DNA of 64,000 nucleotides, from assembly GCA_964530795.1 (NCBI GenBank), contig CAZHBX010000001.1, positions 92 to 64,091 on the forward strand, written 5' to 3'. Position numbers and translations under genes: made by a program. The notes beneath the pieces are model-generated. The model saw only the letters and a program-made list of their open reading frames with translations, was not told the origin of the DNA and did no database searches. Shown here piece after piece: positions 14,779-51,664 of the stretch; positions within the stretch are counted from its first letter, which is position 1, and each line of letters starts with the position of its first letter. Source of the DNA: an uncultured Ruminococcus sp. GTDB taxonomy: Bacteria; Bacillota; Clostridia; Oscillospirales; CAG-382.

Positions 14779-14784
14779 TTTTCT

Positions 14785-15949: not shown

Positions 15950-16013
15950 CCCACTCGGGCGGGGAACCGCCCCTACATATGGTCTGCCGAATAAACCGCA
16001 AGGAGGAACCGTT

Positions 16014-16697
16014 TTGAGAAAATCCATCGGGAACCGGCTGGAGCTGGTCTCGGACCTGCTGCATACATACGGTCCGTTCCGCCGCATGGCAGACGTCGGT
16101 TCGGACCACGCCCTGCTCGCCATCCGCGCCCTCGAGCGAGGGGACGCCGCCTTCGCCATCGCGTCCGACCTGCGTCCGGGTCCGCTCGAACGCGGGCGGG
16201 TCAACGCCGCATCTCACAAGTTCGGGGAGGACCGCATCCGCTTTTGCCTGTCGGACGGGTTCGACGGGTTGGGGGAATTCGATTTCGACTGCGCCTGCGT
16301 CTGCGGAATGGGAGGCGAGCTGATCGCCGAACTGCTGAAACGGTACGGCCCCCACCCGGACTGCCGGTTTTTCTTACAGCCAATGACCGCGCAGGACGAC
16401 CTGCGGCGCTTCCTATGGGAGAACGGGTACCGCATCGACCGCGAAGCGTTCACCCGCGAACGGGACAGGCCCTACGCCGTCCTTGCCGTCCACTTCACCG
16501 GGGAAGCCCCGCAGCCGTACCGCTACGCGGATCTGTTCCTCGGCAGGGAACGCCCGCGGACCGACGCCTTCGCCGCCTACGCCGAAAAGGTTCGCGCGCA
16601 GGCGGAAAAGCGGCTGACCGGACGGCTCGCCCGCGGGCTCGACCCGACAGACGAGCGAAGCCTGCTCGCCGAGGCCGCGTCCCTTGCGAAAAAGTAG
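16014..16697 (+). CDS. trmK: tRNA (adenine22-N1)-methyltransferase TrmK family
   Basis: TTG start 7 nt after AGGAGG. Class I SAM methyltransferase motif ADVGSDHALL and GMGGELI, typical of the TrmK/DUF633 family. Confidence 0.8.
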   Translation: MRKSIGNRLELVSDLLHTYGPFRRMADVGSDHALLAIRALERGDAAFAIASDLRPGPLERGRVNAASHKFGEDRIRFCLSDGFDGLGEFDFDCACVCGMGGELIAELLKRYGPHPDCRFFLQPMTAQDDLRRFLWENGYRIDREAFTRERDRPYAVLAVHFTGEAPQPYRYADLFLGRERPRTDAFAAYAEKVRAQAEKRLTGRLARGLDPTDERSLLAEAASLAKK

Positions 16698-16711
16698 CCC
16701 CAAAACCGATT

Positions 16712-17266
16712 TTACAGGCAGCAAACGAACCGCTTGCCCAGCTTTTCCCGCAGCAGGTCCCGCAGCCGATCAACGTCAGACAGCGCCATGTTCCGCTTCG
16801 GCAGGAGGATGGCGGACTTGCGGGTCGGGTAAAAGTAGAAGAATCCGCCGGTCTCGTACACCCGGTAGAAACCATCGTAGAGGTAATCCTGCTGGCTGTC
16901 CGGCAGATGGCGGGGATTATGGGCGGGGTCGTAGAGAATTTCATAGATTAGTCCGTTTTTCCCGCAATGCACCGCGTGTGTCGCGTAGAGAAACGGCTTT
17001 TGCCGCACGCAGGTCTGCTTGACATGCCGCTTGATCAGGTAAAAAAACATGCAGAAGCAAAGCAGCACGATCGCCGAACCCAGCACGAGCGCCTTGCTTT
17101 TGAGCGAGATCCCGGCGAGAATCCCTGCGAGGCAGGCGAGCACGACCGCGAGGATGACGAAGAGCCGCACCCAGCGGGAGTACTTTCCCCGGAACAGATT
17201 AAACCGCATATATTCCCGGTAATCCGAAAGCACGATCTTCCCCCGGGCGGAAAGGTAGCCTTTCAA
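16712..17266 (-). CDS. YcxB-like membrane protein
   Basis: Two adjacent TM helices followed by a soluble C-terminal domain. Its start overlaps the apgM stop by 4 nt. The family call is by eye only. Confidence 0.55.
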   Translation of the reverse strand: MKGYLSARGKIVLSDYREYMRFNLFRGKYSRWVRLFVILAVVLACLAGILAGISLKSKALVLGSAIVLLCFCMFFYLIKRHVKQTCVRQKPFLYATHAVHCGKNGLIYEILYDPAHNPRHLPDSQQDYLYDGFYRVYETGGFFYFYPTRKSAILLPKRNMALSDVDRLRDLLREKLGKRFVCCL

Positions 17267-29752: not shown

Positions 29753-32353
29753 ATGCACATGAAAACGGAACAAATTGTCAACTCGCCGGAAACGCTGTGC
29801 GAAACCCTTGCGAGGGTTCGCGCCTCCCAGCAAACGTACGGCACCTACGGGCAGGAGCAGGTCGACGCCATCTTCAAGGCCGCCGCCCTCGCCGCCAACA
29901 AAGCAAGGCTCCCGCTCGCCAAACTGGCGGTCGAAGAGACGGAAATGGGCTGCGTGGAGGACAAGGTAATCAAGAATACCTACGCCTCCGAGTATATTTA
30001 CAACGCCTATAAATCCGTCAAGACCTGCGGCGTCATCGAGGAGGATAAGGCCTTTGGATACAGAACCATCGCCGAGCCGGTCGGCATCCTCTCCGCTGTC
30101 ATTCCGACCACCAACCCCACCTCCACGGCCATCTTCAAGTGCCTGCTTGCGCTCAAGACCCGCAACGGCATCATCATCAGCCCCCATCCCCGCGCCAAGG
30201 CGTCGACAATCGCGGCCGCGAAGATCGTGCTCGACGCGGCGGTCAAGGCGGGCGCGCCGGAGGACATCATCGCTTGGATCGACGAACCTACGCTGGAACT
30301 GACCAACCTTCTTATGTCCGAATCCGACCTGATCCTCGCGACCGGCGGGCCGGGCATGGTCAAGGCCGCCTATTCGAGCGGAAAACCGGCGGTTGGCGTC
30401 GGCGCGGGCAACGTCCCCGCCGTCATCGACGACAGCGCCGACGTAGTGCTCGCGGTCAACTCGATCATCCATTCCAAGACGTTTGACAACGGCATGATCT
30501 GCGCGTCCGAGCAGTCGGTCATCGTGCTCGACGCCGTATATGACGCGGTTCGCGCCGAATTCGCCGCGCGGGGCGGGTATTTCATCCCCAAAAAGCAACT
30601 CGACGCGGTTCGAAAGACCATTCTCCCCGACGGCAAGCTGAATAACAAGATCGTCGGACAGACAGCCGAAACCATCGCCAAAATGGCGGGACTCGACGTT
30701 CCCGCCGGGACCAAACTGCTTATCGGCGAGGTCATGAGCGTCGAACCGTCCGAGGCGTTCGCCCACGAGAAGCTCTCCCCGGTCCTCGCGATGTACCGCG
30801 CCAAGGACTTCGAGGACGCAATGAAGAAGGCCGAGCGGCTTATCGAGGACGGCGGGTACGGGCACACCGCTTCCGTCTACCTTGACGTCCTGACCCAGAA
30901 GGAAAAACTCGACGCGTTCGCTCACCGCATGAAAGCCTGCCGCATTGTGGTCAAGTCCCCGTCCTCCCACGGCGGCATTGGCGATATCTACAATTTCAAG
31001 CTCAAGCCGTCCCTGACGCTCGGCTGCGGCTCGTGGGGCGGGAACTCCGTCTCGGAGAACGTCGGCGTCAAGCATCTGCTCAACATCAAAACCGTTGCCG
31101 AGAGGAGAGAGAACATGCTCTGGTTCCGCGCCCCCGAAAAGGTCTATCTCAAGAAGGGCTGCCTGCCGGTCGCGCTGGACGAAGTCGGCACGGTGCTCGC
31201 GAAAAAGCGCGCTTTTATCGTCACGGACTCCTTCCTCTATAAGAATGGCTACACCAAGCCGGTCACGGAGAAGCTGGACGAAATGAACATCACCCATACG
31301 ACGTTCTACAATGTCGCGCCGGATCCGACCCTGCAATGCGCCGAGGAGGGCGTCGCGCAGATGCGCATGTTCGAGCCGGACGTCATCATCGCCGTCGGAG
31401 GCGGGTCCGCGATGGACGCGGCGAAGATCATGTGGGTGCTCTACGAGCATCCGGAGGCGGATTTCCAGGATATGGCAATGCGTTTTATGGACATCCGCAA
31501 GCGCGTCTACACCTTCCCGAAGATGGGCGAAAAGGCATATTTTATCGCGATTCCGACCTCTGCCGGCACCGGTTCCGAGGTCACGCCGTTCGCCGTCATT
31601 ACCGACGGGGCAACCAAGTACCCGCTGGCGGATTACGAGCTGATGCCGGATATGGCGATCGTCGATGCGGACATGATGATGACCGCCCCGAAGGGTTTGA
31701 CCGCCGCGTCCGGAATTGACGCGGTGTCCCATGCGCTTGAAGCGTATGCGTCCGTCATGGCGACGGACTTCACCGATGGGCTTGCGATCCGGGCCTTGCA
31801 GATCATCTTCGCCTACCTGCCCCGCGCCTACGACAACGGCCCGAACGACCCGGTTGCCCGGGAAAAGATGGCGAACGCGGCGACGATGGCCGGTATGGCG
31901 TTTGCGAACGCATTCCTCGGCGTGTGCCATTCGATGGCGCACAAGCTCGGCGCTTTCCACCATCTGCCGCACGGCGTGGCGAACGCGCTGATGCTGCCAT
32001 ACGTCCTGCGGTTCAACGCATCGGAAGTGCCGACCAAGATGGGCACTTTCCCGCAGTACGACCACCCGCACACCCTGCGCCGCTACGCGGAAGTCGCCGA
32101 GGCGCTCGGAATTGACGGCAAGGACGACACGGAAAAGCTTGAAGGGCTAATCGCGAAGGTCGAGGAGCTCAAGGCGAAGGTCGGCATCAAGCCGTCCATT
32201 CAGGCTTACGGCATCGACGAGCAGGACTTCCTCGCCCGGCTCGACGACATGACGGAGCAGGCGTTCGATGACCAGTGCACCGGCGCGAACCCCCGCTACC
32301 CGCTCATGAGCGAAATCAAACAGATGTACCTCGATGCGTATTACGGAAAATAA
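29753..32353 (+). CDS. adhE: Bifunctional acetaldehyde-CoA/alcohol dehydrogenase
   Basis: 866 aa with an N-terminal aldehyde dehydrogenase domain and a C-terminal iron-type ADH domain (GGGSAMDAAK, HSMAHKLG). ATG 29759 is an alternative start. Confidence 0.95.
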   Translation: MHMKTEQIVNSPETLCETLARVRASQQTYGTYGQEQVDAIFKAAALAANKARLPLAKLAVEETEMGCVEDKVIKNTYASEYIYNAYKSVKTCGVIEEDKAFGYRTIAEPVGILSAVIPTTNPTSTAIFKCLLALKTRNGIIISPHPRAKASTIAAAKIVLDAAVKAGAPEDIIAWIDEPTLELTNLLMSESDLILATGGPGMVKAAYSSGKPAVGVGAGNVPAVIDDSADVVLAVNSIIHSKTFDNGMICASEQSVIVLDAVYDAVRAEFAARGGYFIPKKQLDAVRKTILPDGKLNNKIVGQTAETIAKMAGLDVPAGTKLLIGEVMSVEPSEAFAHEKLSPVLAMYRAKDFEDAMKKAERLIEDGGYGHTASVYLDVLTQKEKLDAFAHRMKACRIVVKSPSSHGGIGDIYNFKLKPSLTLGCGSWGGNSVSENVGVKHLLNIKTVAERRENMLWFRAPEKVYLKKGCLPVALDEVGTVLAKKRAFIVTDSFLYKNGYTKPVTEKLDEMNITHTTFYNVAPDPTLQCAEEGVAQMRMFEPDVIIAVGGGSAMDAAKIMWVLYEHPEADFQDMAMRFMDIRKRVYTFPKMGEKAYFIAIPTSAGTGSEVTPFAVITDGATKYPLADYELMPDMAIVDADMMMTAPKGLTAASGIDAVSHALEAYASVMATDFTDGLAIRALQIIFAYLPRAYDNGPNDPVAREKMANAATMAGMAFANAFLGVCHSMAHKLGAFHHLPHGVANALMLPYVLRFNASEVPTKMGTFPQYDHPHTLRRYAEVAEALGIDGKDDTEKLEGLIAKVEELKAKVGIKPSIQAYGIDEQDFLARLDDMTEQAFDDQCTGANPRYPLMSEIKQMYLDAYYGK

Positions 32354-39169: not shown

Positions 39170-40288
39170 TTACGATTGCAAAAAGGACATGAACGCGTTC
39201 TTATTTTCGATCGCGCTCGTCGTCGGGCGGCCGAGGTCTTTGCGGGCGCCGATGGCGCACTTGATCTCCAGGAAGGTCAGTTCGCGGCTTTCCTTCACGT
39301 CACGCAGAGCGGTTTCCAGTTCCTCCGAAGTTCGCGCCGTCAGGACGCGCGGGTAGCCGCACGCCTTCGCGACCGCGTACAGGTCAACGCTTCCCGCCGC
39401 CGTCGGCATCCCGCCGACGCTCTCATGCGCGCAGTTGTTGAGCAGGACGTGGACGAGGTTCTTGGGCTTCACGCTGCCGATAACCGCGAGCGCGCCCATA
39501 TGCATCAGCAGCGCCCCGTCCCCGTCGAGGCACCAGAACCGTTTCTCCGGCTTCTGCAGCGCCGCGCCGAGCGCGATCGACGAGCTGTGCCCCATCGACC
39601 CGACGGTCAGAAAATCCCGCCCGTGCCCGACGCCTGCCGCCTCACGCAGCTCGAACAGCTCGCGGGACGCTTTCCCGGTCGTACAGACGACCGCGTCCTC
39701 CCCGCTGGCGATGAGCAGGCGGCGAATCGCCGCCTCTCGCGTTAAAGGGTAGCCGTTGCGATAAACCCTGCGCCCGGCATAGGTCAGCGCACCCTTGCGA
39801 ATGACAAAAGCAACCTGCTTTCCCGCCGCGAGCAGTACACGGAAGCCGTTCATCGCCTTTTGCAACTGTTCCTCTGTCGTCTCCTTCCCGACAACGAAAC
39901 AGGAAACGTCCATCGTTTCCAGCAGTCGGACCGTCACTTCCCCCTGGAACCGGTGCTGCGGCTCGTCCGGCACACCGGGCTCCCCCCGCCAGCCGACGAC
40001 GAACACACACGGAATCGCGTAGACCGACCTGTTGAGCAGGGAGGCGAGCGGGTTGACCGCGTTCCCCTCCCCGCTGTTCTGGAGGTAAACCAGCGGGACT
40101 TTGCCGGTCGCGAGGTGGTACCCGGCGGCCAGCGCGACGCAGTTTCCCTCGTTCGCCGCAATCAGATGACATCGGGGGTCCTCCCCGCAGGTATCCAGCA
40201 GATAATCGCACAGCGGTCGAAGCAGGGAATCCGGCACCCCGGTATAGAAATCCGATCCCACGATGCGCAGAAAATCGATGACTTGCAT
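39170..40288 (-). CDS. ppd: Phosphonopyruvate decarboxylase (ThDP-dependent)
   Basis: 372 aa. The N-terminus (DFYTGVPDSLL, ANEGNCVALAAGY) and the ThDP motif GDGALLMH...LLNN are typical of Ppd/AepY/Fom2. It lies directly downstream of PEP mutase. Confidence 0.85.
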   Translation of the reverse strand: MQVIDFLRIVGSDFYTGVPDSLLRPLCDYLLDTCGEDPRCHLIAANEGNCVALAAGYHLATGKVPLVYLQNSGEGNAVNPLASLLNRSVYAIPCVFVVGWRGEPGVPDEPQHRFQGEVTVRLLETMDVSCFVVGKETTEEQLQKAMNGFRVLLAAGKQVAFVIRKGALTYAGRRVYRNGYPLTREAAIRRLLIASGEDAVVCTTGKASRELFELREAAGVGHGRDFLTVGSMGHSSSIALGAALQKPEKRFWCLDGDGALLMHMGALAVIGSVKPKNLVHVLLNNCAHESVGGMPTAAGSVDLYAVAKACGYPRVLTARTSEELETALRDVKESRELTFLEIKCAIGARKDLGRPTTSAIENKNAFMSFLQS

Positions 40289-40308
40289 GGTAAATCCTCC
40301 CCCCTCCT

Positions 40309-41604
40309 CTACAGCTCGTCGATGAGGGTGATGATATCCTTAATCGGCATCAGCCGGTCGTCGACCTCTTTCGCGCGGTGGTAGCGCAGGATGTCCTCCG
40401 CCGTGCGCTGCATCGCCGGGAAGGCGCTGCGCGTGAGCTGGTTGGCGTAGATGACGATATTGACCCCGTGGGCCGCCAGTTCCTCTTCCGTGACGCTGTT
40501 AAAGGAGGACGGCACGACGACGAGAGGGGTGTGCGGGTCGGTCCCGCGGAAACGGTCGCAGAATTCGAGAATCTGCGACGGGTCCTTCTTGCGGCTATGG
40601 ATCATGATCCCGTCCGCTCCCGCGCCGACGAACGCCGACGCGCGCGTCAGCGCGTCCTCCATGCCTTTTTCGAGGATCAGGCTCTCGATGCGGGCGATGA
40701 TCATGAAGTCCTCGGTCAGCTGCGCATGCTTGCCGGCCGAAATCTTGGCGCAGAACTCCTCGACCGGGGCCTGCTCCTGCTCGACTTCCGTACCGAACAG
40801 GCTGTTTTTCTTCAGTCCCACCTTATCCTCGATGATAACCGCGCTGACCCCCATCCGCTCGAGCGTGCGGACGTTATAGACGAAGTGCTCGGGAAGTCCG
40901 CCGGTATCACCGTCGAGGATGACCGGTTTGGTCGTAACCTCCATAATATCATCGATCGTACGCAGGCGGGAGGACATATCGACCAGTTCGATGTCCGGTT
41001 TTCCCTTCGCCGTCGAGTCGCAAAGCGAGCTCAGCCACATCGCGTCGAACTGGTCAAGCCGGCCGTTATGTTCGACGACAGTCTTTTCGGCAATTAACCC
41101 GGTCAGCCCGCTGTGCGCTTCGAGCGCCTTGACGATCGGACAGATGCGGATCAATTGCCGCAGCCGCTTGCGACGGTACTCCGGCATGGCGAGTTTCTCT
41201 TTCAGTTGGTTGTCCACCTCGCGGACGGCTTCGTTTCGAGTATAGGGCACGTCAAGGATCTGCCCGCCGTAAGCGGAAAGCAGCGACTCGACGCTCGCGC
41301 GGATTCCCGTCATCGGACCGACCAGCCAGTTGTCGCCGTGGATGACGTAATCCGGACGCAGGGCCGGGATAACGTCGGTGTAAAGCATATCGTTCTGCAC
41401 GACGACCTCCTCCACCCCGTCGATCTCGCCGTATAGCCGCATCCGCTCCTCAAGCGATTTGGTTGGGAAACGGTTGAAGCGAATCAGCGCTTCGTCCGAA
41501 AGCGCCCCGACGATGACCTTGCCGTAGCGGTGGGCCTGTTCGACGATGTTCAGGTGCCCTTCGTGGATGACATCCGTGCAGAAGCAGGCGTAAACGGTTT
41601 TCAT
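40309..41604 (-). CDS. Bifunctional cytidylyltransferase / phosphoenolpyruvate mutase (Fom1-like architecture)
   Basis: The N-terminal ~130 aa form an HxGH nucleotidyltransferase fold (CFCTDVIHEGHLNIV). The C-terminal isocitrate-lyase-superfamily domain carries the Ppm-diagnostic EDKVGLKKNS (EDK-X5-NS). Confidence 0.9.
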   Translation of the reverse strand: MKTVYACFCTDVIHEGHLNIVEQAHRYGKVIVGALSDEALIRFNRFPTKSLEERMRLYGEIDGVEEVVVQNDMLYTDVIPALRPDYVIHGDNWLVGPMTGIRASVESLLSAYGGQILDVPYTRNEAVREVDNQLKEKLAMPEYRRKRLRQLIRICPIVKALEAHSGLTGLIAEKTVVEHNGRLDQFDAMWLSSLCDSTAKGKPDIELVDMSSRLRTIDDIMEVTTKPVILDGDTGGLPEHFVYNVRTLERMGVSAVIIEDKVGLKKNSLFGTEVEQEQAPVEEFCAKISAGKHAQLTEDFMIIARIESLILEKGMEDALTRASAFVGAGADGIMIHSRKKDPSQILEFCDRFRGTDPHTPLVVVPSSFNSVTEEELAAHGVNIVIYANQLTRSAFPAMQRTAEDILRYHRAKEVDDRLMPIKDIITLIDEL

Positions 41605-41651
41605 ACGATACTCCCCTCCTCAAGCTCGCAAATTTGGTTTCATCCCCGTTT

Positions 41652-42827
41652 TCAGCGGAATTTATCGATGATTTCACGGACGAGGAAATCCGCCGTCTCG
41701 TCGATGCGGTCAAACGGGACGTGCTTGGGCAGGTTCGTCCCGAAGGCGGTCCGACACTTTTCGAGTAGTTCGTCGGTATAGGTCAGCACCCCGCCTTCGA
41801 CCCGCTCGATTCCGTCGAGATAGATGGATTCGCGGTTCTTCCGACGCATTTCCGCAAGCGAAAACGGCTTTTCGAGCACCTCCGCGCGGATGTGCTCGTC
41901 CCGCCCGTCGAGCAGCACCGGGTACCCGCCGAGTTCGCCGAACGCGCCGGGAATATGCAGCTTGCGCACCTGCCGGTCCCGCACGACGGCAAGACAGGCG
42001 CGGAGAATCTCGTAGTTGCTCGACGCGTTCATCATGTTGCGCTTCGCGTCGATTGGCATGGGGATGGCGCAGCGGGCGAACAGCTCGCTCTGCGCGACCG
42101 ACAGGACTTCCCCGCGGTAACGCAGCTCCAGCAGCAGCTCCTGCCCTTCCGCCTGCCCCTCCTTGCTGATGCAGACGTCGTGAAAGTGGGAGGCGGCGAA
42201 GGTCACGTCGATGTTGTAAGGGTCGGGAATACCGAGCAATTCCCCGGTGGCGAGCTTAAAGCGGTAGACGAGGTGGTTAAGGTTGCCGCTGCCGAAATCG
42301 GGATACGGAAGCCCCGCGGACTTCAGCCACGGCAGAATCGCGTCGGAATAGGACGTGTTGACGACGATCGCGTCCGGACTCGCCACTTCGCACGCCCGCA
42401 TGAGGTTACGCACGTACTTGACCGAAAGCGGCGCCCAGATGCCGTAGGCGCGGACATTCTTCCACGAGATGCTGCCGTACTTCAGCCCGGCGTAAGCGCG
42501 GCTGCTGTTGACGATGAAATCCGGCTGCCATGCGGAAAGCACCTCCGCGATGGACGGGACGTCGTCGAGGTTGACCGTGTCGAAGATGCGGACCGGCCCG
42601 CGGCAGCGCCCGCGAATGGACGTCGCGACCCGCAGGATATTCACATCGGAAATCAGTTTTTCCGGGTTCCGTCCGGCGACGGCCAGCTCGACGCCCTCGT
42701 CCGCGTCCGAAAGCAGGTAGTCGAGCAGATAGTGCCCGACGCTCCCGAGCCCAACGATGAGGATGCGGGCCTTGCGGGTTCCGAGCGGCTCGCGCAGCAG
42801 GTTGAGTTTGCGTTCCAACGGTGTCAT
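41652..42827 (-). CDS. NAD(P)-binding Rossmann dehydrogenase, saccharopine-dehydrogenase-like (tentative)
   Basis: N-terminal ILIVGLGSVGHYLLDYL (GxGxxG) and about 390 aa overall. An AGGAGGA RBS is present and the ATGA start overlaps the upstream gene. The family placement is by eye only. Confidence 0.55.
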   Translation of the reverse strand: MTPLERKLNLLREPLGTRKARILIVGLGSVGHYLLDYLLSDADEGVELAVAGRNPEKLISDVNILRVATSIRGRCRGPVRIFDTVNLDDVPSIAEVLSAWQPDFIVNSSRAYAGLKYGSISWKNVRAYGIWAPLSVKYVRNLMRACEVASPDAIVVNTSYSDAILPWLKSAGLPYPDFGSGNLNHLVYRFKLATGELLGIPDPYNIDVTFAASHFHDVCISKEGQAEGQELLLELRYRGEVLSVAQSELFARCAIPMPIDAKRNMMNASSNYEILRACLAVVRDRQVRKLHIPGAFGELGGYPVLLDGRDEHIRAEVLEKPFSLAEMRRKNRESIYLDGIERVEGGVLTYTDELLEKCRTAFGTNLPKHVPFDRIDETADFLVREIIDKFR

Positions 42828-43585
42828 GGCGTTTCCTCCTTGTTTTCGGGAATTCTGTCGAAATCCGAAACGGTATTGCAGTTGATCCAGCTTTCAAACG
42901 GGAGCATCCGATAGCTTTCCCGGTCCCGCCCGCCGAAGTACCTGCCGACGAAGGTCAGGTTCGTGCCCTGCCAGTCGCGTTCCGGCGTTTCCCGCACGAG
43001 CGCGCGCAGGCGGCCCGGGTCGGCAAACTTCCAGACCTGCCCGGAGTTGCGGATCTCCGTGAAGGGTTCGTCAACGCGCAGGGCGCCGTGGTCGGTGTCG
43101 TAGAGGTAATGCACATGCCCGCGCAAGTCGAGATAGAAAGCGACGGCTTTGTCCGCCGTAATGGGTTCGCGGTTATAGGTCATCACGTCCGCCGGACACT
43201 CACACACGATGGAAAACGACGGCGTATCGAGGTACAGATCCCCCTCGGCGAAGACCAGCTCGTCGAACGCCCCCTTGCAGGCTTCCAGCAGTCCGCAGTA
43301 CAGACTCCAGCCAGAACCGTACCGCTCGTAGGACAGGTTATCGACGAGGGTCAGACGGTCCGCAAGATCGGGAAACTCCCGACGGACGGTCTCCTCCAAT
43401 TCCCCGAAGCGGTACCCCCCGACGAGGATGTAGCGGTCGAACGGAACCAGCTGCCGCAGCAGGCGGGCAAGCAGGCAGGTCGAAAAGTCCCCCCGATGGT
43501 ACAGGCATTTGACGCATTCCCGCCCGACCGAGCGCGAGAACCGTGTTGCCATCCCGGCGACCGTCACCAACAGCACACGCTTCAT
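42824..43585 (-). CDS. LicC/MobA-like nucleotidyltransferase (candidate phosphonate cytidylyltransferase)
   Basis: N-terminal VAGMATRF (G-x-G-x-R signature of sugar/alcohol-phosphate nucleotidyltransferases). ATG 43585 overlaps the upstream stop as ATGA. Confidence 0.65.
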   Translation of the reverse strand: MKRVLLVTVAGMATRFSRSVGRECVKCLYHRGDFSTCLLARLLRQLVPFDRYILVGGYRFGELEETVRREFPDLADRLTLVDNLSYERYGSGWSLYCGLLEACKGAFDELVFAEGDLYLDTPSFSIVCECPADVMTYNREPITADKAVAFYLDLRGHVHYLYDTDHGALRVDEPFTEIRNSGQVWKFADPGRLRALVRETPERDWQGTNLTFVGRYFGGRDRESYRMLPFESWINCNTVSDFDRIPENKEETP

Positions 43586-44571
43586 TTTCGCAGCTCCCAC
43601 ACGCACGCTTCTATGCCCTTTTCAAGCGGGACGGATGGGGCCCAGCCGGTGCGGGAGCGGATCTTCTCGGTATTCAGCACCCGCCGCTCCGGGTCCGACG
43701 CCCGATAGCCCTTGAACGTAATCTTCGGGTCGGTCACGCCGAGCTTGTCGGCACACAGCCGCACGAGGTCGAGAATGGAGATTTCCTCCTCCGTCGCGAC
43801 GTTGTAGACGCTGCCGTCGAGGGCTTCCGGCGAACGGATCAGGGCGAGCACCGCCGAGCAGCTGTCCTCATTGTAGAGGAAGGTCCGGCGATTCTTTCGG
43901 CTGTTTTCCAGCAGCTCCACCCCGCCGGTGTCGCGCAGCTGGTGCAGGATATGCGGGATGATGTGCTTCGGGTAAAGCTCGCTCTTGCTGTAGACGTTCG
44001 CGAAGCGGATCGAGCAGCCTTTGATCTGCCCCTCGTTCACCGCGTCGCGCAGGAAGAATTCGGTCAGCAGCTTTCCGGTCGCGTAGCTGGTTCGCTGGCT
44101 GTGTTCGGCGTTCGCGAGACGGATATAATCGCTCTCCTTTACCCCGCCTTCCGCCCAGGACGCCATGGAATAGACCTCCGACGTCGAGCAGTTGATATAG
44201 ACCTCCGCCCCGGCTGAGATCGCCTGGTCGAGGAACCGCTTCATTCCGACGACGTTGGTCTGAAAGGTGCGGTTGATATGGTAAAAATGTTCCGTATGCA
44301 CCACGGCGGCGCAGTTGACGTAGACGATTCTGTCACAATGCGGTTTTTCCGCGAGCACCTCCTGCCGGATCCTCTCCATCTGCGCCGGGTCGTTCAGGTC
44401 GAACGGGTGGAAGGCGAAGAGCGGGTTGTCCCGCAAATCCTCGACCGACGCGAAGGAGGACGCAAAGAAGTTGTCAAAGCCGATGACCTTCTGCCCCGCC
44501 TTGGTCACTTGTCGGGCGAGCTCGCTGCCGGTCATGCCGGTCACGCCGCTGACGACATACAGTTCTTTCAT
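43582..44571 (-). CDS. NAD-dependent epimerase/dehydratase (extended SDR)
   Basis: GVTGMTGSEL glycine-rich motif, the YATGK catalytic Y-x3-K and a length of about 330 aa. Confidence 0.85.
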   Translation of the reverse strand: MKELYVVSGVTGMTGSELARQVTKAGQKVIGFDNFFASSFASVEDLRDNPLFAFHPFDLNDPAQMERIRQEVLAEKPHCDRIVYVNCAAVVHTEHFYHINRTFQTNVVGMKRFLDQAISAGAEVYINCSTSEVYSMASWAEGGVKESDYIRLANAEHSQRTSYATGKLLTEFFLRDAVNEGQIKGCSIRFANVYSKSELYPKHIIPHILHQLRDTGGVELLENSRKNRRTFLYNEDSCSAVLALIRSPEALDGSVYNVATEEEISILDLVRLCADKLGVTDPKITFKGYRASDPERRVLNTEKIRSRTGWAPSVPLEKGIEACVWELRK

Positions 44572-45287
44572 ATCCCTTTTTCCAGCCTTTCCCGGTAGAA
44601 ATCGTCTGTCTGCCCGCAGAAAGTCTTTTGCTCCGCGGCGACGTCGTACGGTACTTTTTGCAGTCGCACGTCACCGGTCGCCGTGTCGAGCAGGGCGAAC
44701 TGGGCGTGCGGCACGTGGTTGCGGGGCTGCCCGACCGAGCCGGGATTGAGGAACGCCGTCCGCTTGCGGTTACGGTGGGACGGGTCGTCCGCCGGGTAGC
44801 AGACCTCGAAAAAATGCGGGAGGTGGGAATGCCCGGAGAACACGTAGTCGTAAACCCGGCAGGCATCCGGTTGCGGTCCGGGACGAACGGACCCCCAGTA
44901 CACATCGTTCGGGCTGCCGTGTACGGCGAGGCAGTATACCCCATCGGCGTCAAACGCGCAGGGACCGTCCGTCAGTCCGTGCAGGTACGCGAGGGTGCTT
45001 TCGGTCAGCACGTTTTGCGTGTAGCGAGCACTCAGCCGCCCGCGCTCGGTCGAAAAGCGGGAGAAGTCCCCGTCGAGGACAGCCTGCTCGTGGTTGCCAC
45101 GCAGGTTGCAGAGCGCCGGAAAGGGCCACGACCGCACGAGCGAAACCACCTCGTTCGACCGCATTCCGTAGTCAATCAGGTCGCCGAGCAAAACCAACCC
45201 GTCCGGATTCGCACGTTTCAGCGCCTCGCCGACCGCGCGGGTCGCTTCCAAGTTGCCGTGCAGGTCGGATAGGATCGCAAGCTTCAT
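44568..45287 (-). CDS. Calcineurin-like metallophosphoesterase
   Basis: Motifs LSDLHGN, LLGDLIDYG, GNHE and GHSH appear in canonical order. It is the first gene of the operon. Confidence 0.85.
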   Translation of the reverse strand: MKLAILSDLHGNLEATRAVGEALKRANPDGLVLLGDLIDYGMRSNEVVSLVRSWPFPALCNLRGNHEQAVLDGDFSRFSTERGRLSARYTQNVLTESTLAYLHGLTDGPCAFDADGVYCLAVHGSPNDVYWGSVRPGPQPDACRVYDYVFSGHSHLPHFFEVCYPADDPSHRNRKRTAFLNPGSVGQPRNHVPHAQFALLDTATGDVRLQKVPYDVAAEQKTFCGQTDDFYRERLEKGI

Positions 45288-45397
45288 TGGCTGTTCCCCT
45301 TTCTGGCTGATTTTTGTCGATTTTGAACATAAAGGCGAAAGGGCTCTTTCGATGAATGCTGTTCAATTTCATTTCAAAATTCTATTAGTATGAACAC

Positions 45398-45426
45398 AGT
45401 ATACACCCGCTTTTTGAAAAAAGCAA
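45398..45426 (-). promoter_or_regulatory. Candidate sigma-A promoter of the phosphonate operon
   Basis: Minus strand: TTGCTT (45426-45421), 17-nt spacer, TATACT (45403-45398), in an AT-rich spacer. It predicts a leader of about 100 nt. Confidence 0.6.
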
Positions 45427-45504
45427 GTGTTTTTCAAAAAATTTCCGTGCATAATCAAAAATTGTACAGTTTCACGGTTCATTTTTTCCAAAAAAGCAGC
45501 AGAT

Positions 45505-45543
45505 AGAAAACAAGCGGGTCAAAAAAACCGGAACCCGCTTGTT
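45505..45543 (-). terminator. Rho-independent terminator of the lipoprotein gene
   Basis: 11-bp perfect stem AACAAGCGGGT/ACCCGCTTGTT (45509-45519/45533-45543) with a 13-nt loop. The minus-strand tail is TTCTATCT..CTTTTTT. Confidence 0.6.
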
Positions 45544-45632: not shown

Positions 45633-47411
45633 TCAGTCCGCCTTGAATTCGCCGGTATAGGAGCCAACCGTGACCGTGTAAGTCTCGCCTTTGGTCAGTT
45701 CGGGCAGGCTAAGGATGACCACCGCGTAGGGCAGCGACGGTTCGACGGTCAGCAGGATCTCCCCGCCGTCCCGCAGGACGATCTGCGTTCCGGCGGGCTG
45801 GTTCCCGACTTGCAGGGCGATAACCCCCTGCGACGAACCGCTGAATGTCTGCGCCATTCCGGCGCCGCCCGTTCCGACGAACCGACCGCCCGTGATTACG
45901 CCGCCGGTGTCAAAATCCAGCGCGGCGGTGTCACCCTCCGTCGGGCCGGTAACCGTCACGTCTCCGCCGGAGATCTCCAGCGAGCCATTCACATCAATCC
46001 CGTCGCCGTAAGCGACGATCGAAACCGTCCCGCCGGAAATAACGACCGAGCCGTCGGAGGAGCCGCCCGGTCCGCCGCCCGGTCCGCGCCCGCCGCCGAA
46101 GCCGAAGCCGCTTTCGTCCGTGCCGCCCGCCGCGTTGATGCCGTCGTCGTCCGCTGTCAGTTGAATCTCCCCGCCGGTGACGAGCACGTGCAGCCCTTCG
46201 ATCCCTTCGTAGCTATTCTCGACGCGAATGGTCCCGCCGGTCACGGTCAGGGCCTCGTCTGCATGAAAGCCATCGTCCCCGGTCAAAATCGTGAACGTCC
46301 CGCCGGCGACCGTCACATCGCCGTTGGAATGCACGGCGTCGTCGGCGCTGTCGAGTGCGAACGTCCCGCCGGCGAGCAGCAGCCCGCCGTCCGCTTTGAT
46401 CGCCTTTGTACTCTCCGTCGAATCGGTATCGGTCGAGGAGGTCACAGCGCGATTCCAGCCGGACCCGCCGAAACCGCCGGACGCATGCTGCGGACCGTTT
46501 TCGTGCCCGCCGCCGGACGTGACCGTCACGTCCCCGCCGGACACCCCCAGTGCGCCGCTCGCGCTGATCCCATCGCCGTCCGACACGACGGACAGCGAAC
46601 CGTCGGCGAGGTAGAAGTACCCGAGCGTCTCGTCACCCTCGTTCTCGACGTGGACGCCGTCCTTGCCGGTCTCCAGCACAAGTGCGGCGCCGTCGATGCG
46701 GACGCTGTCGTTCACATCAAATCCGTGCGAACCCGCCCGAACGGTATAGGTTCCGCCGGTAAGCACCAGGTCGTCCTTGCAGACCACCCCGTGCCCGCCC
46801 GGAGAAGTTACGGTCAGGCGGCCCGCGCCGTTGCAGGTCAGGTCCTGCTTGGAGAACAACACCCCGTCGATGCTGTCCCCATCGTCTGAAACGAAGGAAC
46901 CGCCGTTTGACAGAGTGTTCTCGCTGTCCTCCGCGAGCGTGATAAACACCTTGTCCGCCTCGCGGATGTACAGGGCGGCGGACGCGGAGCTGTTGACGTT
47001 CACCCCGTCGAGCACCAGCTGCAATTGATCGTTTTCCCCCGCGTCGACGAGAATCTGCCCATTGTCGAGCGTACCGGACAGGACGTAGGTTCCCTCGGCC
47101 CTGATCGTCACGGTTCCGCCGTCCACCGTCACGTCTTTGCTGTCACATTCCGCCGTCAAGCCTTGCAGCAGGATCCGCACGGCGTCCCCGTCGTCGTAGG
47201 ACGTGCGGCGGTCGCGGTCGGTGAATAGCGCGGCTTCGTCCCACGAAACCGCGCCCGAAAGGGTCCCCGAAACCGCGTCCGCTCCGCCATCGCCCGCCAA
47301 ACCTGCCGATTCCGCCGACGTGTCCTGCGAATGCGACTGCGCCTTCCCCGCCCCGCAGGCGGTGAGCAGTCCCGCCGCAAGCAGCAGCGACAGGAGCGCC
47401 TGCTTCTTCAT
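45633..47411 (-). CDS. Lipoprotein with Gly/Asp-rich parallel beta-helix repeats (Cthe_2159-like carbohydrate-binding family, tentative)
   Basis: ATG 47411 lies 8 nt after GGAGG. The signal peptide has the lipobox LLTAC. Many repeats of the form GG.V.V.SG.DGI/GGT.T. are present. Confidence 0.7.
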   Translation of the reverse strand: MKKQALLSLLLAAGLLTACGAGKAQSHSQDTSAESAGLAGDGGADAVSGTLSGAVSWDEAALFTDRDRRTSYDDGDAVRILLQGLTAECDSKDVTVDGGTVTIRAEGTYVLSGTLDNGQILVDAGENDQLQLVLDGVNVNSSASAALYIREADKVFITLAEDSENTLSNGGSFVSDDGDSIDGVLFSKQDLTCNGAGRLTVTSPGGHGVVCKDDLVLTGGTYTVRAGSHGFDVNDSVRIDGAALVLETGKDGVHVENEGDETLGYFYLADGSLSVVSDGDGISASGALGVSGGDVTVTSGGGHENGPQHASGGFGGSGWNRAVTSSTDTDSTESTKAIKADGGLLLAGGTFALDSADDAVHSNGDVTVAGGTFTILTGDDGFHADEALTVTGGTIRVENSYEGIEGLHVLVTGGEIQLTADDDGINAAGGTDESGFGFGGGRGPGGGPGGSSDGSVVISGGTVSIVAYGDGIDVNGSLEISGGDVTVTGPTEGDTAALDFDTGGVITGGRFVGTGGAGMAQTFSGSSQGVIALQVGNQPAGTQIVLRDGGEILLTVEPSLPYAVVILSLPELTKGETYTVTVGSYTGEFKAD

Positions 47412-47545
47412 ATGCCATGCCTCCCCGTTGGTTTTTCTTTGAGTATATGCTATAAAAATGAAACGTTTCGGTCGGAAAACGTGAATTTTTTGCAGATTAT
47501 TTTGAACAAACCGTAAATCCTTTCTCCGCCCGGACGCCTTCCGGC

Positions 47546-47574
47546 TTGACAAGGCGAGGGGATTGTGCTATGAT
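47546..47574 (+). promoter_or_regulatory. Sigma-A type promoter of the ABC-like gene
   Basis: TTGACA (47546-47551), 17-nt spacer, TGcTATGAT (47566-47574). The track ORF start at 47546 is the -35 box itself. Confidence 0.75.
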
Positions 47575-49129: not shown

Positions 49130-51664
49130 ATGAAGCAACCAAAACAGATGATCAGACGAATTGTTGACTTGTGCATGGTCATCCTTCTGCCGCTTTTGAT
49201 GGCGGAAGTCCTGATCGGACAGGAAATCCACGAATGGCTCGGGACGGGAATGCTGGTTTTGTTTATCGCCCACCACGTTCTAAATGTTGGCTGGTGGAAA
49301 ACTCTCTTCAAAGGGAGATATACGCCGTCCCGCTGCTTTGGCGTGTCCCTCGACCTGCTGCTCCTTTTGGATATTATAGCTTTAGGCGTAAGCGGGATCA
49401 TGCTGTCCGGCTTTGTCTTTGACTTTCTCCCCATAAGCGGAGGGATGGCAGTCGCGAGAAAACTTCACCTCTTTGCCTCTTACTGGGGGCTGATCCTGAT
49501 GTCGGCGCACCTGGGACTGCATATGGAAATGCTCATAGGAGTCGGAAGGAAGCTGTTCCATATTTCAGGAAAGGGCGTGGCAAGGAAGTGGATTTTACGC
49601 GCACTCGCCGCGTCAGTATGCGCTTATGGCATTTACGCCTTTGCCAGCCAACGCATCTGGGACTATCTGTTCCTGCGGACGCATTTCGTGATGTTTGACG
49701 AGACAAAGACGGCGGTCGTCTACTTTGCCGAAACCGCCGCTATGATTGTGCTTTTCGCGGCGGCCGCGCACTACCTGAACAAACTTTTACGCCTTATGGG
49801 AAAGAAATCCGAAAAGAAGCAATTGAATGGAACGGCATGGAAAATATGCGCGTTCGCCGTTCCCGTGCTTGTTTGTGCGCTTGTGATTGCGGGGTTCAAT
49901 ATGCCATCGCGAAATTTGCCGTGGCAAAGCAAACCTGCCGAGCCTCCGACAAACAGCAATCTTGAACAAACCGCGGATGTGCAGGACGGATTTGTACTGA
50001 TAAAAGGCGACAGTTATAAAATGGGAAGCCCGAAGGATGAGCCGTGGCGCTCCGGCGATGAGGCACAGCACACTGTGACAGTGAGCGATTTCTATATCAG
50101 CCCCTATGAGGTCAGGCAAAGCGACTATGAATCGGTCACGGGAGAAAATCCTTCCAATTTTGCCGGAGATAACCTCCCCGTTGAAAACGTGTCGTGGCTG
50201 GACGCCATTGCTTACTGCAACGCGCTAAGCGAGAAGGAAAACCTCACGCCCGCCTATGCCGTGGACGGGCAGACTGTCACATGGGACAGGAGCGCGAACG
50301 GCTACCGTCTGCCCACCGAGGCGGAATGGGAATACGCCTGCCGCGCCGGGACGGCGACGCCGTTTAATACCGAAACCTCCATCGGCCCGGAGGAATCCAA
50401 CTATTATGGACATTACCCCTACGAGATCGAGAACAACTATTTTTCCCAAGGGAACCTTTCGACAAAGCCGGGCGAATACAGGCAGACGACGGTCGCCGTG
50501 GACAGTTTCTCCCCAAACGCCTGGGGGCTTTACAATATGCACGGCAACGTCAGCGAATGGGTGTGGGATTTCTACGGCGAATATGACATGTCCGACACCG
50601 CCGACCCCACAGGTCCTGAAACAGGGACGCGCCGCGTCTACCGGGGCGGCGGCTGGAACGATTTCGCCAAGAATCTGCGCTCTGCCTACCGTGCCACTCT
50701 GCCGGAGGATAAAGGCAGCTTCAACCTCGGCATCCGCCTTGTGCGGAACGCTGTGAACGGCGCGGGAAGTGTCACTACTTCCGGAACAGAAAATGAAACG
50801 GCAGATGGCGGAAAGGTATTGATTGCCTTCTTCTCTTGGGGCGGAAACACCAGAGGGATCGCGGAAGAAATCCAATCGCAGACCGGGGCGGATCTCTTTG
50901 AGATCGAGCTTGTCAATCCCTATTCAACCGACTACAACACCGTACTCGACCAGGCACAGCACGACCAGAACATCCAGGCGAGGCCGGAGATCAAAAACCA
51001 TGCGGAGAATTTTGAACAGTATGACACCATCCTCTTAGGCTATCCAAACTGGTGGGCGTCCATTCCCATGCCGATTGCCTCATTTTTAGAGGCGTATGAC
51101 TTTTCGGGCAAGACGATCATCCCGTTCTGCTCCCACGGGGGAGGGCGTTTCGGGCAGAGCCTGACGGCGATCGCCAAGCTGGCCCCTGATGCCGATATAG
51201 GCGAGCCGCTGTCTATCCATTACTCCGGCGGAAGCACACTGCCGGACGACATTGCAGACTGGCTGAAAGCAAATCGTATCCATGAAGGAGAGGAGGAAAA
51301 CGCTATGATGCAGATGAAAATCGGCGATACCGTAGTTTCGGTGGACTGGGAAAACAACACATCCGTGGAAGCATTGAGAGCACTGTGCGCAGATCATCCC
51401 CTGGAGATTCCGATGTCTATGTATGGCGGTTTTGAGCAGGTGGGTTCTCTCGGGCAGAACCTGCCGAATAGTGATTCGCAGATAACCACAGCCGCGGGAG
51501 ACATCGTCCTGTATTCCGGCGATCAGATTGTCGTGTTTTACGGATCGAATACGTGGTCCTACACCCGGCTTGGCAGGATTACGGACAAAACAAAAGACGA
51601 AATGGCAAAGCTTCTTTCCGGCGGCGATGTGACCGTCACGATAGCGGGGGGCAACATGGAATGA
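49130..51664 (+). CDS. Multidomain fusion: polytopic membrane domain (DUF4405-like) - SUMF1/FGE-like domain - flavodoxin-like domain - cyclophilin-like domain
   Basis: Seven hydrophobic segments by eye (aa 10-260). The SUMF1/FGE fold shows YRLPTEAEWEYACRAG, GLYNMHGNVSEWVWD and RVYRGGGW. The flavodoxin_4-like module shows VLIAFFSWGGNTRGIAEEI and ILLGYPNWWASIP. The C-terminal ~115 aa form a cyclophilin-like module (GDIVLYSGDQIVVFYG). Confidence 0.8.
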   Translation: MKQPKQMIRRIVDLCMVILLPLLMAEVLIGQEIHEWLGTGMLVLFIAHHVLNVGWWKTLFKGRYTPSRCFGVSLDLLLLLDIIALGVSGIMLSGFVFDFLPISGGMAVARKLHLFASYWGLILMSAHLGLHMEMLIGVGRKLFHISGKGVARKWILRALAASVCAYGIYAFASQRIWDYLFLRTHFVMFDETKTAVVYFAETAAMIVLFAAAAHYLNKLLRLMGKKSEKKQLNGTAWKICAFAVPVLVCALVIAGFNMPSRNLPWQSKPAEPPTNSNLEQTADVQDGFVLIKGDSYKMGSPKDEPWRSGDEAQHTVTVSDFYISPYEVRQSDYESVTGENPSNFAGDNLPVENVSWLDAIAYCNALSEKENLTPAYAVDGQTVTWDRSANGYRLPTEAEWEYACRAGTATPFNTETSIGPEESNYYGHYPYEIENNYFSQGNLSTKPGEYRQTTVAVDSFSPNAWGLYNMHGNVSEWVWDFYGEYDMSDTADPTGPETGTRRVYRGGGWNDFAKNLRSAYRATLPEDKGSFNLGIRLVRNAVNGAGSVTTSGTENETADGGKVLIAFFSWGGNTRGIAEEIQSQTGADLFEIELVNPYSTDYNTVLDQAQHDQNIQARPEIKNHAENFEQYDTILLGYPNWWASIPMPIASFLEAYDFSGKTIIPFCSHGGGRFGQSLTAIAKLAPDADIGEPLSIHYSGGSTLPDDIADWLKANRIHEGEEENAMMQMKIGDTVVSVDWENNTSVEALRALCADHPLEIPMSMYGGFEQVGSLGQNLPNSDSQITTAAGDIVLYSGDQIVVFYGSNTWSYTRLGRITDKTKDEMAKLLSGGDVTVTIAGGNME

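Follow-up and report, generated by a model that had tools for sequence, protein, structure and literature searches.

Which product emerges when phosphonoacetaldehyde (PnAA) is formed by an operon that encodes none of the enzymes known to take it further? The question is raised by six genes on the minus strand (39170-45287) of a 64,000-nucleotide stretch of DNA, hereafter the window, from an uncultured Ruminococcus sp. (contig CAZHBX010000001.1). In order of transcription they encode a metallophosphoesterase, an extended short-chain dehydrogenase/reductase (SDR), a DUF6564 protein of predicted nucleotidyltransferase fold, an oxidoreductase of 391 residues that we call X391, a cytidylyltransferase (CTase) fused to a phosphoenolpyruvate (PEP) phosphomutase (Ppm), and a phosphonopyruvate decarboxylase (Ppd) (Table 1). 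A first interpretation made from the letters alone, here the sequence-only reading, had described a Fom1-like operon whose end product cannot be read from known pathways; the latter statement holds, and a literature search on Pnt pathways and phosphonoglycans found no paper characterising this gene set. The operon belongs to a widespread variant, as yet uncharacterised, of the surface phosphonate-tailoring pathways. We see in it a copy of a conserved six-gene cassette that has apparently spread horizontally, and think it probable that the cassette makes a nucleotide-activated two-carbon phosphonate head group for surface glycopolymers or flagellin glycans.

According to this proposal X391, an enzyme of the NADPH type, would reduce PnAA to 2-hydroxyethylphosphonate (HEP), or would condense it reductively, with ammonia, an amine or an amino acid as partner, the product being 2-aminoethylphosphonate (AEP) or an N-substituted AEP. 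The Fom1-type CTase domain would form a cytidine monophosphate (CMP)-linked phosphonate from the product of X391, and LicD- or TagF-type transferases encoded outside the window would pass the phosphonate to the glycan. The metallophosphoesterase, the SDR, which resembles GDP-mannose dehydratase (GMD) and UXS, and DUF6564 would constitute a tightly coupled accessory sub-module that further processes or re-activates the nucleotide-linked intermediate.

The EDK-X5-NS motif sets Ppm apart from its relatives of the isocitrate-lyase family. It is present in the C-terminal domain of gene 5 as EDKVGLKKNS (residues 259-268, nt 40801-40830), and this domain scores 410.3 bits against TIGR02320 (equivalog cutoff 319.55), matches PF13714 (2.7e-57) and aligns with the solved Ppm 5unc (E 1e-43). 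Ppd scores 455 bits against TIGR03297 (cutoff 312.5) and carries GDG-X26-NN at residues 256-285 (nt 39434-39523); models of sulfopyruvate decarboxylase score far under their own cutoffs on this protein. With the curated equivalog cutoffs exceeded and the motifs in place, family membership shows the predicted conversion of PEP to phosphonopyruvate by Ppm and then to PnAA by Ppd, and the commitment of carbon to PnAA claimed earlier is upheld. The N-terminal domain of gene 5 is a CTase (PF01467, E 6.5e-10; HEGH at 41554-41565), the best solved relative of which is the Fom1 CyTase 5x3d (E 8e-24 over residues 4-135), bearing out the Fom1 architecture; it also matches ethanolamine-phosphate cytidylyltransferase 3elb (E 6e-9). 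The characterised homologue of the Fom1-type CTase acts on HEP (PMC6697681). PF01467 is nevertheless present in 23.6% of all Ppm proteins, including those of AEP-type surface-tailoring clusters (PMC6697681, PMC8942020), and the fusion can no longer be taken as a specific sign of fosfomycin-like logic.

What happens after PnAA is less apparent. Neither the operon nor the remainder of the 64-kb window encodes an AEP transaminase (AEPT), a PhpC-type iron-dependent alcohol dehydrogenase (Fe-ADH), LicD, a TagF-like protein or a glycosyltransferase, so that the absence of transaminase, Fe-ADH and transferases noted earlier for the operon extends to the whole window. The sole Fe-ADH domain of the window is part of a bifunctional AdhE (29753-32353), unlike the HEP branch (PhpC/FomC/DhpG), in which a Group III Fe-dependent alcohol dehydrogenase (PF00465) is encoded beside Ppd. 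Unclassified Ppm-Ppd neighbourhoods having none of the seven known branch-point enzymes were termed 'post-Ppd other' (Li & Horsman 2022, PMC8942020), and they include Fibrobacter succinogenes gene cluster family (GCF) 60 and the archaeal GCFs 869 and 685 (PMC8942020). N-(2-hydroxyethyl)-AEP is reported as a product of F. succinogenes, which lacks an AEPT, PF12850 and PF16363 are common to its cluster and the archaeal Ppm-Ppd clusters, and Li & Horsman proposed for Fibrobacter a reductive amination with ethanolamine instead of transamination (PMC8942020). The operon, having Ppm, Ppd, PF12850 and PF16363 and no known branch-point enzyme, falls within this class. The comparison of gene neighbourhoods with known clusters that the sequence-only reading had called for thus led to 'post-Ppd other', with relatives placed in glycan loci. 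In that study X391 and DUF6564 were not named as conserved, the spread among gut Clostridia was not reported and no enzyme was offered for the reductive step (PMC8942020). Since we find the cassette in three archaeal lineages, the archaeal clusters of Li & Horsman are probably this cassette. The Fibrobacter cluster is likened to it by published Pfam content alone (PF12850, PF16363), and Fibrobacter was not among the best 80 of the 285 genomes.

We infer that X391 is the PnAA-converting enzyme standing in for AEPT or PhpC/Fe-ADH, because it is the gene most tightly tied to Ppm-Ppd and the sole redox enzyme in minimal gene sets. X391 lies immediately upstream of CTase-Ppm in most loci. In one minimal locus (L056; L-numbers are our locus handles) three LicD genes are followed by X391, CTase-Ppm and Ppd, and the metallophosphoesterase, SDR and DUF6564 are missing; a second (L090), again without the metallophosphoesterase-SDR-DUF6564 trio, has CTase-Ppm and Ppd together with a homologue that is 35% identical to X391; in a third (L097) the X391 homologue comes directly after Ppd.

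The protein itself belongs to no named family. It matches Sacchrp_dh_NADP (PF03435) at 21.9 bits, under the Pfam cutoff of 25.1, with no match in NCBIfam and none in Pfam to Sacchrp_dh_C (PF16653), Ldh_1_N or Ldh_1_C, and sequence searches of the PDB gave nothing usable. A profile of the X391 family reaches the saccharopine and carboxyspermidine dehydrogenases 4rl6 and 8deb over the N-terminal ~95 residues only (E 2e-6), and an NADP-type Rossmann domain is what X391 has in common, by profile, with the saccharopine/carboxy(nor)spermidine dehydrogenases (PF03435). Its GxGxxG is followed by an invariant Arg after beta-2, which suggests an enzyme of the NADP(H) type. The C-terminal two-thirds have no sequence relative of known function, and the motifs NSSRxxxGLKYGS, NTSYSD, GSGNxNH, SHFHD and KRNMMNASS are restricted to the family. 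The AF2 model (pLDDT 81) found in Foldseek, as best matches, exclusively lactate and malate dehydrogenases (LDH/MDH; E 3e-9, TM ~0.5, root-mean-square deviation (rmsd) 5-7 A), with which it has in common the overall two-domain predicted fold. We reject X391 as a true saccharopine dehydrogenase, since the match is sub-threshold and confined to the N-terminus, and we do not count it as a true LDH/MDH, the likeness found to these enzymes being one of fold.

This predicted fold raises the alternative that X391 acts one step earlier, reducing phosphonopyruvate so that phosphonolactate is formed, the reaction of VlpB in the valinophos pathway, thereby pulling the Ppm equilibrium and sending a three-carbon phosphonate onward. 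Phosphonopyruvate is an analogue of oxaloacetate (PMC8942020), the top structural matches are all 2-oxoacid dehydrogenases, and several related loci have Ppm and no Ppd within 10 kb. We nevertheless hold this to be very improbable: Ppd is encoded here as well as in 65/80 related loci, a decarboxylase and a reductase competing for one substrate within one operon would be uneconomical, and the fold match is modest at the values given above, with no LDH/MDH signature at the level of sequence.

A wider search shows that the operon is no one-off. More than 2,900 relatives of X391 were found in a large protein collection, and the top 120 all have 391 residues and ~60% identity. When one genome per species was scanned with the alignment of close X391 relatives as the query (the more diverse alignment being too divergent for the scan), X391 relatives were located in 285 species-representative genomes. 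Gene content within 10 kb was counted in the best 80 of these 285: the four upstream genes are present in 71/80 loci, CTase-Ppm in 73/80, Ppd in 65/80 and all six genes in 59/80, and the identical contiguous six-gene order is kept in 44/80. Among the bacterial carriers are Lachnospiraceae, Oscillospiraceae, Christensenellaceae, Roseburia, Acetatifactor, Hungatella, Ruminococcus and the spirochaete Treponema, with cultured representatives in Roseburia sp. 1XD42-69 (L019), Pilosibacter fragilis CSJ-4 (L030), Bianquea renquensis NSJ-32 (L031) and Kineothrix sp. MSJ-39 (L068), and the archaeal carriers are a Thermoplasmata archaeon, a Methanomethylophilaceae archaeon and Methanobrevibacter (loci L071, L072 and L088). 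As X391 identity across the carrier phyla is 53-62%, the cassette appears to have spread horizontally as a unit. A recent horizontal acquisition in the present genome was ruled out by a GC content (0.61-0.63) that is the same in the operon as in its flanks and the rest of the window, and by synteny in related metagenome-assembled genomes (MAGs). The closest relatives, at ~86% nucleotide identity and syntenic, are MAGs of rabbit-gut Clostridia, which also have the flanking Cthe_2159 gene; one of them (L011) further runs into the glgB region. Here and in L010-L012 the six genes remain together as an orphan with no glycan locus nearby.

Three loci (L034, L039 and L056) come from MAGs labelled Muribaculum sp. 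NALB_7961, a non-flagellated member of the Bacteroidota, and yet their contigs contain flagellin genes together with a Clostridia-like cassette; these contigs are probably the result of mis-binning and not a true presence in Bacteroidota. One MAG so labelled has two copies of the cassette, L039 being complete and L056 minimal.

The surroundings of the cassette in relatives indicate what it may serve. When the ORFs of 83 loci were clustered, LicD (PF04991, E 1.5e-36) was the dominant accessory family, with 71 copies in 43 of the 83 loci, and its gene frequently comes immediately before that of the metallophosphoesterase. GT2 and GT4 glycosyltransferases, TagF-like CDP-glycerol glycerophosphotransferases, IspD/TarI-like nucleotidyltransferases, Wzx- and Wzy-like proteins, NeuB and UDP-sugar enzymes recur as well, and several loci carry flagellin genes with DUF3880-type glycosyltransferases or FlgM/FlgN/FlgK. 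Neither aminotransferase-V nor Fe-ADH forms a recurrent family near the related loci, in the clustering or among the 25 commonest Pfam families of neighbours to which the Pfam tally extended, a result that does not exclude single genes. Given the LicD, glycosyltransferase, Wzx and flagellin surroundings, the cassette is normally part of surface- or flagellin-glycan loci, and the absence of transferases is a trait of this locus and not of the pathway. We infer that the copy in the window is an orphan whose transferases are encoded elsewhere in the genome.

Several neighbours merit separate mention. Flagellin genes are found near the cassette in L056, L021, L044, L062 and L068, and FlgM, FlgN and FlgK in L007-L009 (18-21 kb). 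In several species the cassette and LicD genes lie in apparent flagellin-glycosylation islands with DUF3880/Glyco_trans_1_2 proteins, which suggests phosphonate-modified flagellin glycans. A ~700-aa protein beside the cassette in L002/L018 (11321-13396), L025 and L026 has a C-terminal domain of the citrate-lyase-ligase type (HIGH nucleotidyltransferase) and an unassigned N-terminal part of 500 aa; in L002/L018 it takes the usual position of CTase-Ppm. Large C2185-like_N/sulfatase-like proteins recur (L002 3014-4813 and 13440-15194, L004 16826-18616, and others; families f11 and C2185-like_N), and the Pfam tally of neighbours contains radical-SAM (four families) and SPASM (two families) proteins. 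Together these may be phosphonate or phosphoglycerol transferases of the alkaline-phosphatase superfamily with their maturases.

The pathway to which the cassette is most usefully compared is Pnt, in which AEP is placed on surface glycans by Ppm, Ppd, AEPT, the PntC cytidylyltransferase and a LicD-like transferase (Rice et al. 2019, PMC6697681). Both have a Ppm and Ppd core, a CTase fused to Ppm and a second nucleotidyltransferase, which in the cassette is of predicted LicC/PntC-like fold, and in both Pnt and the relatives' loci LicD-family transferases and glycan genes adjoin and the hosts are anaerobic and host-associated. In place of the AEP transaminase of Pnt, however, the cassette has X391, the GMD/UXS-like SDR and the metallophosphoesterase; its second nucleotidyltransferase is DUF6564 (PF20202), whereas PntC is PF12804; and linked LicD or glycosyltransferase genes, a feature of Pnt, are lacking from this 64-kb window. 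The cassette therefore fails membership of the AEP version of Pnt, as there is no AEPT in the operon or window and the second nucleotidyltransferase does not match PF12804, and yet, judged by its genes, it reads as working like a phosphonyl-tailoring (Pnt) pathway.

In the fosfomycin pathway of Streptomyces, HEP is converted to CMP-HEP by Fom1, followed by the action of Fom3, FomD and Fom4. Like Fom1, gene 5 has an HxGH cytidylyltransferase N-terminal to the PEP mutase, Ppd is also found in the operon, and the cassette encodes a metal-dependent hydrolase able in principle to remove CMP. The FomC-type Fe-ADH, the B12-radical-SAM methyltransferase Fom3, HppE/Fom4 and the DUF402 protein FomD, in contrast, are encoded neither in the operon nor by any ORF of the window, consistent with the earlier remark that Fom3- and Fom4-like genes are missing, and the cassette occurs in strict anaerobes in a context of glycan biosynthesis. 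The operon was therefore rejected as a fosfomycin-type cluster, its partner enzymes being absent. In a Fom1-like small-molecule pathway, towards which the sequence-only reading leaned, HEP would be transiently linked to CMP by the CTase, modified in that CMP-bound form by the SDR and freed by the metallophosphoesterase in the role of FomD, yielding a free and possibly bioactive phosphonate. The relationship of the CTase domain to the Fom1 CyTase, the lack of a transferase in operon and window, the resemblance of the metallophosphoesterase to nucleotide phosphodiesterases and Ap4A hydrolases, and the distant X391 homologue that follows CTase-Ppm-Ppd in the natural-product-like locus L090 would all fit such a route. 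It is hard to see, though, why a second nucleotidyltransferase would be kept if CMP were only a transient handle; most related loci sit in gene sets of LicD, TagF-like proteins, glycosyltransferases, Wzx and flagellin, PF01467-Ppm fusions are common in surface-tailoring clusters, and a search of the window found no Fom3-, Fom4- or FomD-type gene, exporter or resistance gene. We regard this route as decidedly unlikely, and a glycan-decoration role as more likely than a free Fom1-like metabolite.

As for L090 itself (ENA ERZ27236663 k141_5156895, 5488-17137), the X391-like gene is followed by genes for an ECF-type sigma factor, a SAM methyltransferase, a small cupin, a 455-aa protein and a copy of threonyl-tRNA synthetase, possibly for self-resistance, and an MGS-like glycosyltransferase and a carbamoyltransferase are also encoded. 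Its product may be a free phosphonate metabolite.

The three genes at the head of the operon are informative as to family and less so as to substrate. The metallophosphoesterase (PF12850 E 5e-19, PF00149 9e-14) has intact DxH, GD and GNH metal motifs, its nearest solved relatives being the uncharacterised metallophosphoesterase 3rqz and 3qfm of the Ap4A hydrolase/phosphodiesterase type; it is found in 74/80 related genome loci, and we propose that it provides a phosphatase or phosphodiesterase step. A Thr-Ser-Glu plus YxxxK signature is common to GDP-mannose dehydratase and UXS-type enzymes, and the SDR (PF01370 5e-31, PF16363 6e-27) displays it as STSEVY and YATGK, along with GVTGMTG (GxxGxxG). 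Its best PDB match is UDP-glucuronate decarboxylase 4lk3 (E 1e-14), followed by GalE and RmlB, its scores lie far under the cutoff of every NCBIfam equivalog, and its median identity to relatives is 70%. DUF6564 (PF20202 E 1e-76) has no NCBIfam match and no PDB relative by sequence search, and a literature search for DUF6564/PF20202 found no paper mentioning it; the residues AGxxTR...K are invariant in the family. Foldseek with its AF2 model (pLDDT 90.7) found inositol-1-P cytidylyltransferase 4jd0 (E 1e-10, TM 0.66), LicC 1jyk and PntC-AEPT 6pd2 (TM 0.69), the gene 3 sequence not matching PF12804. On its predicted structure DUF6564 is a nucleotidyltransferase-fold enzyme, the second nucleotidyltransferase of the cassette. 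Pfam and NCBIfam scans and motifs thus agree with the identities first given to the six genes; the labels 'LicC/MobA-like' and 'Rossmann dehydrogenase' are right for genes 3 and 4 at the level of fold, but the proteins are DUF6564 and a member of an unclassified family.

The nucleotide-sugar flavour of these genes leads to another explanation, namely ordinary decoration with 2-AEP, in which CMP-AEP arises through a canonical AEP transaminase encoded elsewhere, while the four upstream genes would belong to a distinct route to a nucleotide sugar or alditol and would share with it no more than the operon and the target glycan. The best matches of the SDR are indeed enzymes acting on NDP-sugars, and nucleotidyltransferases for sugar-1-P and inositol-1-P are those that DUF6564 resembles. 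In L002/L018 the four genes are found with neither Ppm nor Ppd, the metallophosphoesterase-SDR-DUF6564 trio is absent from L056 and L090, and the search for a transaminase covered the 64-kb window. What makes us consider this explanation rather unlikely is the behaviour of X391, which stays with the Ppm and Ppd genes where the other three are missing (L056, L090 and L097) and which gene order and ATGA coupling bind to both halves of the operon. Moreover, no recurrent AEPT was found near the 80 loci, and the six genes occur together as an orphan unit here and in L010-L012.

Several observations weigh against the assignment of the cassette to phosphonate tailoring of glycans, or of X391 to PnAA. 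As neither the operon nor the window contains a transferase, attachment to a glycan in this organism is deduced from relatives only. L002/L018 have the four upstream genes with no Ppm or Ppd within 10 kb, and L004, L040, L084 and L086 have Ppm without Ppd within that distance, from which it follows that the four upstream genes may not strictly depend on PnAA. L096, a metagenomic locus of gene fragments and the only distant locus of this kind, combines a Ppd-Fe-ADH pair with SDR-DUF6564-X391, and given this pair X391 need not be the PnAA reductase there. The phage-like locus L091 encodes a metallophosphoesterase, an SDR, two nucleotidyltransferases, X391, a phosphomutase-family protein, choline kinase and a BCCT transporter, and no Ppm. 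Finally, the predicted fold of X391, which overall is nearer to LDH/MDH than to saccharopine dehydrogenase, favours a plain reduction of PnAA to HEP, or even one of phosphonopyruvate.

The chemistry of X391 may be either reduction of PnAA or its reductive condensation with an amine. The Fom1-type CTase that accompanies X391, whose characterised homologue uses HEP, also counts for plain reduction. The saccharopine/carboxyspermidine-type Rossmann domain counts for condensation, the family of saccharopine and carboxyspermidine dehydrogenases being one that joins an aldehyde to an amine, as do the finding that distant X391 homologues adjoin amino-acid enzymes and the reductive amination put forward by Li & Horsman for F. 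succinogenes (PMC8942020). We lean slightly towards condensation.

The distant homologues are of some interest in themselves. On the rhizobial plasmids pRt1078 of Rhizobium tumorigenes (L094, 6049-10149) and pMLa of Mesorhizobium japonicum (L095, 5706-10146), X391 homologues of 28-31% identity form a conserved block with an alanine racemase, a DMT transporter and a TIGR01459 HAD hydrolase, near which lie genes for a C45 peptidase, an MR/MLE protein and opine-oxidase-like FAD/2Fe-2S proteins. Another distant homologue is found with ornithine cyclodeaminase and MR/MLE, and a further one with an ArgRS-like protein, an aminotransferase, a methyltransferase and a HAD protein. The rhizobial contexts imply that the wider X391 family is not specific to phosphonates, and it may handle amines derived from amino acids.

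A more specific idea, which we put forward tentatively and consider possible rather than probable, is that X391 represents an eighth early branch point, the NADPH-dependent coupling of PnAA to an amine or amino acid such as serine or phosphoserine, leading to a CMP-activated N-substituted AEP, e.g., N-(2-hydroxyethyl)-AEP, that LicD-type enzymes would install on cell walls and flagellin, with gut Clostridia and spirochaetes as carriers alongside methanogens and some phages. In a speculative scheme X391 would couple PnAA to serine or phosphoserine, and a cytidylyltransferase would supply a nucleotide handle. The UXS/GMD-like SDR would then oxidise the beta-hydroxyl, so that decarboxylation could take place and a re-reduction leave a hydroxyethyl group, a step modelled on UXS and on SDR-type threonine/serine 3-dehydrogenases, and the metallophosphoesterase would take off the phosphate or nucleotide.

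Phosphonate decorations, AEP and phosphocholine analogues among them, shape the dealings of host-associated microbes with immunity and phages, and ~13% of known Ppm neighbourhoods are without assignable chemistry. The cassette is apparently among the commoner of the unassigned types, reaching hundreds of gut and rumen species in two domains, and X391 is a compact, testable candidate for the missing step after PnAA. Solving the cassette would provide a new branch-point enzyme for phosphonate biosynthesis and functions for DUF6564 and for an unclassified oxidoreductase family, and would bring to light a new modification of the surface or flagellin of abundant gut commensals; the orphan N-(2-hydroxyethyl)-AEP of Fibrobacter would probably be accounted for as well. 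If the product is an N-substituted AEP, the mammalian gut would hold a widespread and unrecognised phosphonate surface chemistry; if it is plain HEP or AEP, the finding amounts to no more than a known step carried out by a non-homologous enzyme.

Some of the carriers are probably phages, to judge from the gene content of two contigs, a GenBank phage match and a match in BFVD. The contigs are L091 (Logan ERR10101441_601, 121 kb, 1-9164) and L092 (ENA ERZ1764566 NODE_29, 133 kb, 1618-9158), the latter encoding Ppm-NTP_transf_3, Ppd, metallophosphoesterase, SDR, DUF6564 and X391. Their neighbours include SbcCD, NAD-ligase, dATPase, a TMP-kinase-like protein, NrdD, thymidine kinase and an endolysin-like protein among many small ORFs on the same strand; the 17 kb examined contained no structural phage genes, and scans of IMG/VR found no phage copies. 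In the cultured Vibrio phage Va2 (L093; MW073017.1, 86429-87580) a lone X391 homologue, annotated as hypothetical and 31% identical over 98% of the query, lies among other hypothetical genes. The sole strong structural match of the X391 model in BFVD, A0A873WBD4 (383 aa, TM 0.78), is probably this same protein.

The layout of the operon in the window agrees with the first description. All six ORFs and the three ATGA start/stop overlaps, which according to the ORF coordinates lie at 44568-44571, 43582-43585 and 42824-42827, are where they had been placed, gene 3 being read from its ATG (a GTG at 43606 is also open). The two remaining junctions are gaps of 47 and 20 nt, and each of the six starts is preceded by a ribosome-binding site of the GGAGG or AAGGGG type. 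The promoter proposed earlier, TTGCTT-17-TATACT, is present in the sequence (TTGCTT at 45426-45421 and TATACT at 45403-45398, with 17 nt between), but its -35 element matches at 3/6 positions only, and our consensus promoter scan did not report it owing to this weak -35; the sole minus-strand promoter-like site that the scan reported in the spacer is TGGAAA-18-TACAAT. A hairpin and T-rich run that follow the upstream Cthe_2159 gene, not listed by a simple terminator scan, are likely a terminator dividing that gene from the operon, and with them in place a separate promoter within the 345-nt AT-rich spacer is plausible.

Table 1. Features of the operon and of the spacer upstream of it.
Feature	Position	Strand	Family or basis
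Gene 1, metallophosphoesterase, 239 aa	44568..45287	-	PF12850, PF00149
Gene 2, extended SDR (NDP-sugar epimerase/dehydratase/decarboxylase type), 329 aa	43582..44571	-	PF01370, PF16363
Gene 3, DUF6564 protein of predicted nucleotidyltransferase fold, 253 aa	42824..43585	-	PF20202
Gene 4, X391, unclassified NADP-Rossmann oxidoreductase, 391 aa	41652..42827	-	sub-threshold PF03435
Gene 5, CTase-Ppm fusion, 431 aa	40309..41604	-	PF01467 + TIGR02320
Gene 5, N-terminal domain, HxGH cytidylyltransferase of the Fom1 CyTase type	41185..41604	-	PF01467
Gene 5, C-terminal domain, PEP phosphomutase	40309..41169	-	TIGR02320, PF13714
Gene 6, Ppd, thiamine diphosphate (ThDP)-dependent phosphonopyruvate decarboxylase, 372 aa	39170..40288	-	TIGR03297
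Candidate sigma-70-type promoter TTGCTT-17-TATACT	45398..45426	-	-10 matches 5/6, -35 only 3/6
Alternative promoter-like site TGGAAA-18-TACAAT	45461..45490	-	consensus match only
Hairpin (GAACAAGCGGGT...ACCCGCTTGTT) followed by T-rich run	~45503..45543	-	3' of the upstream Cthe_2159 gene; sequence read directly

The other genes of the window are of housekeeping type, e.g., MnmA, O-acetylhomoserine sulfhydrylase, AdhE and a ribosomal protein/adk/map/secY block, and a gene resembling GH13 branching enzymes is convergent with ppd. When the accessory families of the related loci (LicD, GT2, GT4, TagF-like, Wzx and others) were used in tblastn, no match was obtained across the 64-kb window. Directly upstream of the operon a Cthe_2159-family carbohydrate-binding protein is encoded (45633-47552, minus strand), in which an internal lipoprotein-type signal sequence can be discerned by eye; the gene keeps its synteny with the operon in the related MAGs L010 and L011. 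Further on, an ORF on the plus strand (49130-51664) encodes an 844-aa fusion of unusual architecture, its four domains being a DUF4405 membrane domain, an FGE-sulfatase (SUMF1-like) domain, flavodoxin_4 and a cyclophilin-like domain, and the GC content of the surrounding region, 0.54-0.55, is lower than that of the rest of the window.

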